A stretch of 64,000 nucleotides of DNA. Origin: an uncultured Verrucomicrobiae bacterium. Its GTDB lineage: Bacteria; Verrucomicrobiota; Verrucomicrobiia; Limisphaerales; Palsa-1400. Position numbers and translations under genes: made by a program. Shown one piece after another: positions 7,021-7,482 of this stretch (position 1 is its first letter; each line of letters opens with the position of its first letter). Below the pieces are notes generated by a model, which saw only the letters and a program-made list of their open reading frames with translations, made no database searches and was not told where the DNA came from. The DNA lies in assembly GCA_963702845.1 (NCBI GenBank), contig OY969763.1, positions 4,064,001 through 4,128,000 of the forward strand, given 5' to 3'.

Positions 7021-7219
7021 CCTATGAGGTTTGTCAATACGTAGTGTGCGTCGATGATAGTTTTTTTGGGGTTGATCGCGCGGAGCGCAGTGGAACGAAG
7101 CGCAGTCGCGCGCGGCAGGCGGTTGGACATTGGTTCAATCCGCACCTGTTGTTCTTCTCGAGTCTCCGCTTATCTGTTCCTCTTCAAAGTTCCTTTCTTA
7201 TTTCTCTCAAAGCAGGTTG

Positions 7220-7440
7220 CGTGAAGTTTGCTGCATCGGTGTCGCCGCGTTTTGTGTGTCGGGAGTTTGTCCCGCACCAGCTCCTATCCGGACAGTTGAG
7301 ATAAGACTCAACGCCCACTGTGTCTTACTTGCCTGACTGCGGCGACCGGGGAGTCCGCCCCTTCTAACGGACGGATGAACGCAAGGTTCACCAGCTGAAG
7401 CTACGGACTGGACTCGCCCGATCGCAAATTGTTTCACGCT
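7220..7440 (-). ncRNA. Putative bridge/seek RNA of the IS110 element (boundaries approximate)
   Basis: CCGUCCG (7374-7368) matches the target junction and AUAGGAG (7287-7281) matches the circle junction; each is followed by a hairpin. Confidence 0.6.
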
Positions 7441-7482
7441 CTTAACTCTGGAGGTTCTACTCACGAAAAAATTAAATGTGGT

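Follow-up and report, generated by a model that had tools for sequence, protein, structure and literature searches.

Comparison with relatives points to a probable two-module guide RNA in the non-coding end of an IS1111-type insertion sequence from a Verrucomicrobiae genome

How does an insertion sequence that occupies the same kind of site in several places find that site, and how does it recognize its own ends? The question is raised by a 1657-bp IS1111-type element in the window, by which we mean the whole analysed stretch of 64,000 nt from an uncultured Verrucomicrobiae bacterium (contig OY969763.1). Behind its recombinase gene, this element carries a long non-coding end, and we consider it probable, at roughly 80%, that this end encodes a two-module guide RNA (a bridge RNA or long seekRNA of ~190 nt, w7423-7233) that would spell both the landing site and the ends of the element itself. 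The element ends, the target, the covariation of the RNA fold, and guides that track flanks and ends are directly supported here. Positions in the window are written with w, the element coordinate is e = 8678 - w, and L-numbers denote the loci that were compared. The element and the interrupted target repeat are laid out as follows.

w8747-8678, minus strand: left 70 nt of the interrupted attC-like repeat, a family of 18 BLAST hits, beginning with GCCGAAC (w8747-8741)
w8677-7021, minus strand: whole IS1111-type insertion sequence, 1657 bp, with six copies and exact ends known from empty sites
w8677-8659, minus strand: left end, with the 7-nt extension AGATGTC (w8677-8671) and then the subterminal inverted repeat ATGAAGGGTTGA; conserved in 40/40 relatives with a left end
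w8634-7483, minus strand: recombinase (transposase) gene, 383 aa, PF02371
w7037-7021, minus strand: right end, with TTGACA (w7037-7032), the subterminal repeat and the 3-nt extension AGG (w7023-7021); conserved in relatives and in distant elements
w7020-6999, minus strand: right 22 nt of the attC-like repeat, ending with GTTCGGC (w7005-6999), the reverse complement of the opening heptamer

The source genome is a single contig of 6.03 Mb and holds six copies of the element, five at 99-100% identity and one, L006 (G000:C1:441906-443569), at 95%. All six copies start with AGATGTC and terminate with CATAGG. Their left flanks end with CCGTC in four cases, CGGTC in one and GCATT in one (L006), and their right flanks begin with CGCTGG (three copies), CGCTGA (two) or GGCTGA (L006). 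Because six empty sites in the same genome have directly abutting flanks, with zero bases shared or added, the element ends are exact and there is no target duplication. A first-pass annotation, made from the letters of the window alone, had reconstructed the target and circle junctions, and the copies' shared ends and the six empty sites agree with it. Comparison of occupied and empty sites thus revealed site- and orientation-specific insertion without target duplication, as expected of IS1111 elements. The element consists of a 43-nt left end, the 383-aa recombinase gene and a 462-nt non-coding right end, so that the longer non-coding region lies 3' of the gene (462 nt downstream vs 43 nt upstream). 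Extensions of 7 bp on the left and 3 bp on the right beyond subterminal repeats are described as a hallmark of IS1111 (PMC11187229), and here AGATGTC precedes ATGAAGGGTTGA on the left and AGG follows ...AACCTCAT on the right. The subterminal repeat is imperfect in the window copy and better in relatives (ATGATGGGTTGA vs the complement of CAACCCTCAT). In the source genome the element is an ordinary, recently active insertion sequence.

The target was claimed by the first-pass annotation to be an attC-type site, and the repeat fits that description in outline. It is 92-93 nt long and bounded by inverse heptamers of the RYYYAAC/GTTRRRY core-site type, GCCGAAC...GTTCGGC in the window and GCTTAAC...GTTAGGC in L007. 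In the wider family, GTTRRRY was found in 25/38 right flanks, and in 18 of those it lies 14 nt after the insertion point; the insertion point itself is 14-15 nt before the GTTAG core. The 18 BLAST matches of the repeat family (~93 nt each) are scattered through the genome singly or in small groups, e.g. at 1.70-1.73 Mb and 4.29-4.32 Mb. A search of the source genome for an integron integrase reached at best 85.9 bits with TIGR02249, against a cut-off of 265. We term the target attC-like, rather than attC, because an integron integrase was undetected in this genome and the repeat copies are scattered. It was also noted that scattered attC-like repeats of this sort resemble attC-site clusters without an integrase.

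We examined the fold of the non-coding end in an alignment of 33 distinct relatives' RNAs, drawn from relatives at 13 genome loci and 41 metagenome loci. The predicted parts are listed below.

w7423-7233, minus strand: core of the predicted guide RNA, about 191 nt, with P0 (w7423-7420 with w7237-7233) as its closing helix; covariation in 33 relatives
w7419-7348, minus strand: helix P1 closing the target loop (w7419-7405 with w7360-7348); 13 pairs, 7 of them compensatory, 100% of cells paired
w7395-7371, minus strand: hairpin H1 of the target loop (GCTGGTGAACC ... GGTTCATCCGT), containing a constant CCGT; 8 pairs, 4 of them compensatory
w7346-7241, minus strand: donor module, with helix P2 (w7346-7339 with w7248-7241), a three-way junction, and the hairpins P3 (w7317-7289) and P4 (w7278-7256); covariation

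The architecture is one in which P0 closes the whole, P1 and H1 with the internal loop between them form module 1, and P2 with its three-way junction and P3/P4 forms module 2. Pairs were counted on the RNAalifold model over 42 pairs and 1386 cells. Across five helices, 98.2% of these cells hold standard pairs, compared to 38.7-47.1% when the partners are slid. Changes on both sides of a pair that preserve pairing were found in 18/42 pairs, and 0/500 shuffles reach the observed values. P2 (98.9% of cells paired) and P3 (99.3%) each include compensatory changes. P4 was scored by folding each RNA separately; it forms in 33/33 relatives, with a 5' strand starting in TGGTGC. An RNAalifold helix (columns 52-55/85-89), a 3-bp GTC/GAC hairpin and a 2-bp pair in GCTGGTGC consist of guide bases or invariant bases and were excluded before the pair count. 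Conservation of the non-coding end is concentrated at e1236-1462 and e1551-1610, and the divergent copy L006 differs from the others nowhere in e1281-1411 and at about 5% of positions elsewhere. A conserved secondary structure of the kind expected of a bridge RNA or seekRNA is therefore present. The earlier claim that a small hairpin follows each of two guide 7-mers held for CGGGA/TCCCG, which is P4, and found no support for GGCG/CGCC, whose bases belong to two other helices, P1 (3' strand) and P2 (5' strand), each with its own compensatory changes.

The segments within this fold that match DNA outside the RNA fall into four kinds.

w7401-7394, minus strand: right-target guide GCTTCAGC, antisense to right flank +2..+9, in the target loop (5' strand); tracks the right flank
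w7370-7361, minus strand: left-target guide CCGTT (w7370-7366), then AG (w7365-7364) and AAG (w7363-7361; handshake-like, resembling left-end bases 3-5); tracks left flank -5..-1
w7326-7320, minus strand: candidate left-end guide AAGACAC (GACA antisense to left-end bases 4-7), weak and placed partly by eye
w7287-7278, minus strand: right-end (donor) guide ATAGG (w7287-7283), then AG (w7282-7281) and CTG (w7280-7278; handshake-like, equal to right flank +3..+5); tracks the right end across clades

In module 1, two guide segments read opposite strands of the target and change with it. The segment GCTTCAGC is the reverse complement of right flank +2..+9, which reads GCTGAAGC, or GCTGGAGC with one G-U pair, and CCGTT matches the left flank CCGTC (-5..-1) with a terminal U-G. 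The window lineage combines CCGTT and GCTTCAGC with the flanks CCGTC and CGCTG(G/A)AGCG. Most relatives carry GGGTT or CGGTT together with GCTGCAGC in the RNA, next to left flanks GGGTT or CGGTT and right flank CGCTGCAGCG, and L024/L052 carry ACTTT and ACTGGAGC next to ACTTT and CGCTCCAGTG. Single cases follow the same logic: in L033 the left flank and the RNA both read GCGTC, in L040 the RNA has GCTGGAGC for the right flank GGCTCCGGCG, and in L045/L047 the RNA has CAGCGGG for CAGCTGG, which places a G opposite +1 that pairs with the C of the attC-type target and gives 9/9 pairs. The same T->G change was noted in L030, in the donor module. When flanks were permuted among 26 distinct cases, 2/10,000 permutations reached the observed match for the left guide and 5/10,000 for the right guide, values that are inflated by kinship among the loci.

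The pattern extends, by eye, to a clade at 36-40% protein identity, where the RNAs read AAGCCCCT, CTCCCCTCCT, TGACCCCT and TCCGCCCT and the right flanks AGGGGCTT, AGGAGGGGAG, AGGGGTCA and AGGGCGGA, respectively. In the distant clades the antisense target guide also covers +1 and +2 (e.g. GAAAGTCCT vs AGGACTTTC in L085), because their targets start with the donor's AG. The copy L006 has the ancestral right-target guide GCTGCAGC in place of GCTTCAGC; its left flank GCATT fits the guide poorly and its right flank is without GTTRRRY, and it may represent an off-target or later rearranged insertion.

In module 2, ATAGGAG sits between P3 and P4. The 16-mer surrounding it is identical in 43/45 RNAs, and the right end reads ATAGG in 39/41 loci. 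More informative are the distant elements. In a distant clade of 11 loci (seven genomes of the phylum sample and L065), the motif GGATAGCAG was found in 11/11, and the right end is CATAGC in the nine where it is visible. Four plasmid-borne elements at 26-33% identity carry ATAGA+AG, ATGTG+AG, ATGAG+AG and ATGAC+TG; in 4/4 the predicted 7-mer, which joins the right end's final five bases to the left end's initial two, has a single occurrence, in sense orientation, at 160-192 nt past the stop codon (196 nt in the window element), with 0.02-0.03 chance occurrences expected for each by our own arithmetic. Six clades therefore show, at the same position of the RNA, the last five bases of the right end followed by the first two of the left end (ATAGG+AG, ATAGC+AG, ATAGA+AG, ATGTG+AG, ATGAG+AG, ATGAC+TG), the ends in five of the six being typed by end rules rather than empty sites. 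The proposal that ATAGGAG is a donor guide in a 5+2 register is strengthened by this same-position match, and a donor loop whose right-end guide and core match the element's own ends is thus present in all six. The left-end guide is a weaker candidate. GACA is constant in relatives and becomes GACT in 3/4 loci whose left end has A at base 4, and other clades have GGTCAT or GCAT, fitting their left ends; on sequence, GACA may pair with left-end bases 4-7.

The claim that a guide (bridge or seek) RNA gene lies in the 3' non-coding end of this IS1111-type element is supported by the covarying fold and by guides that track flanks and ends. The first-pass annotation had pointed to CCGTCCG (w7374-7368) and ATAGGAG (w7287-7281), and it was right that each occurs once on the element strand and never on the other strand, with the target-type 7-mer first. 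When the 462-nt non-coding end was shuffled 20,000 times with its dinucleotides preserved, the target 7-mer appeared in 3.5%, the donor 7-mer in 1.2% and both together in 5/20,000; allowing any of four registers and either strand, both 7-mers appeared in 2.25%. CCGTCCG was accordingly proposed as the left target guide, pairing with left flank -5..-1 and the target's CG in a 5+2 register. Its identity to the reconstructed target, 7/7 in four of the six genome copies, 6/7 in one and 3/7 in L006, and its rarity in shuffles speak for this placement. However, CCGT, which makes up the 3' strand of H1, stays the same in 33/33 aligned RNAs regardless of their targets, and among the 31 relatives with both flanks the CCGTCCG register matches 3/7 bases in 19, 4/7 in 10, 5/7 in one and 6/7 in one, i.e. 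at most 4/7 in 29/31, whereas the 5-mer after CCGT matches 5/5 in 15 of the same loci, 4/5 in 12 and 3/5 in four. Between the window lineage and its closest relative L029, the flank change (GG->CC, two changes) is tracked only in the canonical CCGTT register, and the sense guide of L085 begins 114 nt past the stop codon, as against 113 for CCGTT in the window element. CCGTCCG is thus the constant CCGT plus three guide bases, four bases off CCGTT, and it fits the source genome well because the target of this lineage happens to repeat the constant CCGT motif. We regard its role as the left target guide as unlikely, and the constant CCGT may add pairing in the source lineage. The suggestion that both 7-mers would covary with targets and ends across homologues holds for ATAGGAG and the ends; for the flanks, it is the 5-mer after CCGT that does the tracking. 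The tentative right-hand guides (CTG near w7337 and TGTC near w7257) fall in P2/the junction and in P4 (3' strand), respectively, and show no conservation as such; the right target guide is instead w7401-7394. When only one copy is inspected by eye, a repeated constant motif can shift the apparent position of a guide, an error that comparison with relatives corrects.

The donor guide has a rival of its own, in which the RNA is a target-only seekRNA, the protein recognises the ends through the subterminal repeats, and the block around ATAGGAG serves as scaffold or is bound by protein, its likeness to the ends being incidental. In the close family the block and the ends are both invariant, hence show no covariation; the account of Siddiquee et al. 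describes target matches only in its available text (PMC11187229), and short seekRNA forms of 82-96 nt would span module 1 alone (PMC13604230). Set against this are the six clades, whose six end and core combinations each have a matching 7-mer at the equivalent place, and the report by Durrant et al. of donor-complementary bases in the multi-loop of IS1111 bridge RNAs (PMC11208160), and we consider a target-only RNA very unlikely. It could also be argued that the conserved non-coding end acts as DNA, through recombinase-binding or end-recognition sites, and the equally conserved block at w7122-7072 (0.77-0.89), which is without a covarying helix, would suit such a role. The compensatory changes in five helices, including G-U alternatives that are sensible on one strand only, and guides that read both DNA strands, as is known for IS1111-type RNAs, leave a purely DNA role scarcely credible.

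Returning to the two-module guide RNA, several observations weigh against it. Some flanks fit poorly: at the right flank L033 matches 2/9 (with an aberrant right end, CTCATACT, followed by a repeat of its left flank's GGCGTCA), L023 4/9 and L061 6/9; in L025 and L046 the usual flank is separated from the right end by two additional G; the left guides of L056 and L040 match 3/5; and the genome copy L006 has the left flank GCATT. Most relatives share one target type, and independent retargeting events are few (about 4-5). The left guide is 5 nt long, and in the source genome its last base pairs only as U-G. By identity, the source genome's copies fit the shifted CCGTCCG register (7,7,7,6,7,3 of 7) better than CCGTT (4,4,4,3,4,3 of 5), which reaches 5,5,5,4,5,4 of 5 when U-G/G-T wobble is counted. 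On the donor side, the right ends of the four plasmid-borne elements were set by the subterminal-repeat and 3-nt rule and not by empty sites, and the left-end guide is short (4-5 nt) and meets an A-C mismatch where a lineage has AGATGCC as its left end. An Rfam scan of w6300-9400 at E <= 10 matched no family to the non-coding end; matches there stayed at chance level (HIV-1_SD, 17 bits vs 30; ssnA, 14.7 vs 37.3), and the miRNA-like matches in w6300-9400 fall on palindromic repeats. Among 20 public sequencing runs listed, none contained half of the element's words (best share 0.31, in DNA contigs). Finally, the N-terminal RuvC-like DEDD domain PF01548 of the recombinase is weak (18.2 bits, below the cut-off of 29, residues 52-192), and the structure model is poor (mean pLDDT 61.5, TM about 0.3).

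At 80% likeness, the runs X20, X12, X18 and X1 yielded contigs of relatives and nothing else. One of these, from the RNA-labelled run X20, is a 269-nt contig of a relative with 20 other letters and three gaps that spans w7308-7575, from the 3' end of the gene into module 1; such a contig is no proof of a transcript, and the library may contain DNA.

How could the RNA act? We infer from sequence that it would be produced, bound by the recombinase and direct recombination. Its transcription would accompany or follow that of the recombinase gene, probably driven by a promoter that arises when the ends are joined in an excised circle. The right end carries TTGACA (-35) 11 nt from its terminus, and a -10-like CATGAA/CATGAT occupies left-end bases 7-12, so that as read from sequence the spacing becomes 17 bp if the ends are joined; together these hexamers would form a promoter at the circle junction. 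A junction promoter of this sort is described for ISEc11 (PMC11187229). A promoter scan of w6900-8800 returned a single promoter-like site, on the plus strand only (1 found vs 0.5 expected), and no terminator-like site was found on the element strand near the RNA in the same interval. Module 1, the internal loop between P1 and H1, would read the target, and module 2, the three-way junction, would read the element ends, with GACA as the possible contact to the left end. Each sense guide continues into bases that match the other DNA: AGAAG/AGATG resembles the start of the left end, AGATG, and CTG equals right flank +3..+5. Both guide segments resemble the junctions of the inserted state, at 8/10 and 10/11 bases. 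By analogy, these handshake-like bases may follow the logic of the IS621 handshake guides, which are described as pairing with non-cognate DNA after the first strand exchange (PMC11208158; PMC13626964).

The dinucleotide after the crossover was claimed to differ between target (CG) and donor (AG), and this is what the comparison shows. The left-target guide runs on into AG, the donor's dinucleotide and not the target's CG, in 45/45 RNAs. Right flanks start with CG in 30 loci, GG in seven, AG in three and CA in one (n=41), while the left junction, where the left end begins, has AG in 40/40 relatives with a left end; in relatives at 36-40% identity the targets themselves start with AG. These one-sided junctions argue against segregation of a core heteroduplex, because an IS621-type 2-bp staggered double exchange would swap the arrangement in about half of the descendants. 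The one-sided outcome may, tentatively, reflect either an unstaggered exchange or the transfer of one strand only, namely the one cut beside the left flank; single-strand transfer has been proposed for IS621 in a 2026 preprint. If this were true, natural insertions of the window element's family would record IS1111-type strand chemistry, and core identity would not be required.

The recombinase was also compared with known proteins. The C-terminal Tnp domain PF02371 is present at residues 259-335 (E 4.6e-16; 59.4 bits vs a cut-off of 21.3), and a precomputed PF01548 match exists for some relatives at about 77% identity. A serine motif of the form G--P----SG, described as catalytic in PMC11187229, was found where GCCPGEHSSG aligns with GLTPRRYESG of IS621, in an alignment that is weak (E 0.36). 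In a Foldseek search with the predicted structure, the ten best matches were chains of IS621 (8wt6, 8wt9) and ISCro4 (9t56), with E 3.8e-5 to 3.2e-3 over ~345 columns, and the modelled fold thus matches that of IS621/ISCro4.

By sequence-level criteria, the element belongs to the IS1111 seekRNA/bridge RNA systems. It is like the attC-targeting ISKpn4, ISPst6 and ISPa25, whose seekRNAs are described in PMC11187229, in having its non-coding region 3' of the recombinase gene, the 7-bp/3-bp extensions, no duplication, a folded RNA, and an antisense (top-strand) match 5' of the sense (bottom-strand) match. RNA sizes and guide order likewise fit IS1111 seekRNAs (PMC11187229; PMC13604230 Table 1). 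As in ISKpn4, whose insertion point is AA*CG (PMC13604230 Table 1), CG directly follows the point of insertion, here within an attC-like site. In contrast, insertion occurs 14-15 nt upstream of the GTTAG core, compared to 8 nt in the target strings of ISKpn4/ISPst6 (PMC13604230 Table 1), and the recombinase, at 383 aa, is longer than the 330-350 aa given for IS1111 members (PMC11187229). The setting also differs from that of ISKpn4-type elements, the host being a Verrucomicrobiota genome in which no integron integrase was detected. A plasmid tblastn with 860 matching records yielded no relative at >=60% identity, the matches listed being at 24-44%. In the phylum sample of 401 genomes including the source genome, seven others matched at E <= 1e-30, all at 36-40% identity. 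Relatives are abundant in Verrucomicrobiota metagenome bins (source names Limisphaerales and Pedosphaera), with at least 2,753 proteins at E <= 1e-20 among 8,000 candidates scored. Sequence grounds place the element in a new lineage of the kind of system reported in 2024, and ISKpn4-type elements are not its close kin.

The predicted RNA also resembles the IS621 bridge RNA (PMC11208160, PMC11208158) in its division into two modules that each address both strands of a single DNA. Taken from the opposite strand, its target layout is the 7+2+5 nt of IS621: the 5' strand carries a 9-nt sense guide (7 nt plus the 2-nt core), the 3' strand a 5+2-nt antisense guide with 2-3 handshake-like bases, as described for IS621, and the donor core is CT. 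As in IS621, the handshake-like bases of the window element pair better with non-cognate DNA (2 vs 1, in the donor module). Several features depart from IS621 as described: the RNA gene follows the recombinase gene instead of preceding it, the donor module forms a three-way junction that includes an additional hairpin, the left-end guide is short and without core pairing, and the natural target core CG differs from the donor core AG by one base. Protein similarity to IS621 is weak, by fold as well as by sequence (E 0.36). The predicted bridge RNAs of the IS1111-group elements ISCARN28, ISAzs32 and ISPa11 (Durrant et al. 2024, Fig. 6 and Extended Data Fig. 10c) are likewise described with the RNA in the right end and donor-binding bases in a multi-loop. 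RNA-guided IS110/IS1111 recombinases are under development as programmable DNA-insertion tools, and in the available texts published experiments on IS1111-type RNAs reach target matches only. The window family offers many natural relatives, a fold backed by covariation, four kinds of guide position placed, three of them firmly, and handshake-like bases, and it is a natural case of unequal target and donor cores.

Further observations concern the surroundings of the predicted RNA and of the element. The second conserved block, at w7122-7072 on the minus strand, has per-window identities of 0.77-0.89; in relatives it is GC-rich and holds three CTCCG motifs ~10 nt apart. No covarying helix was found in w7122-7072 (alifold -6 kcal/mol), and the block may serve to bind a protein or belong to a longer transcript. 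A 150-aa open reading frame (ORF) at w6592-7044 on the plus strand, without a Pfam match, runs through the right part of the attC-like repeat into the insertion sequence; its last seven codons and stop lie inside the element, so the insertion changed its 3' end, if the ORF is a gene. Finally, a 91-nt palindromic repeat with iterated TGTCTCC/GGAGACA heptamers occurs in five copies (w6357-6447, w8779-8869, w9199-9289, w11003-11093 and about w12104-12190) spaced 0.4-2.4 kb apart with small ORFs between them. BLAST placed it at 10 places, all in one 100-kb bin. The ends of these repeats are not of the attC core-site type, and the attC-like repeat hit by the insertion sequence is 22 nt away from one of the copies.

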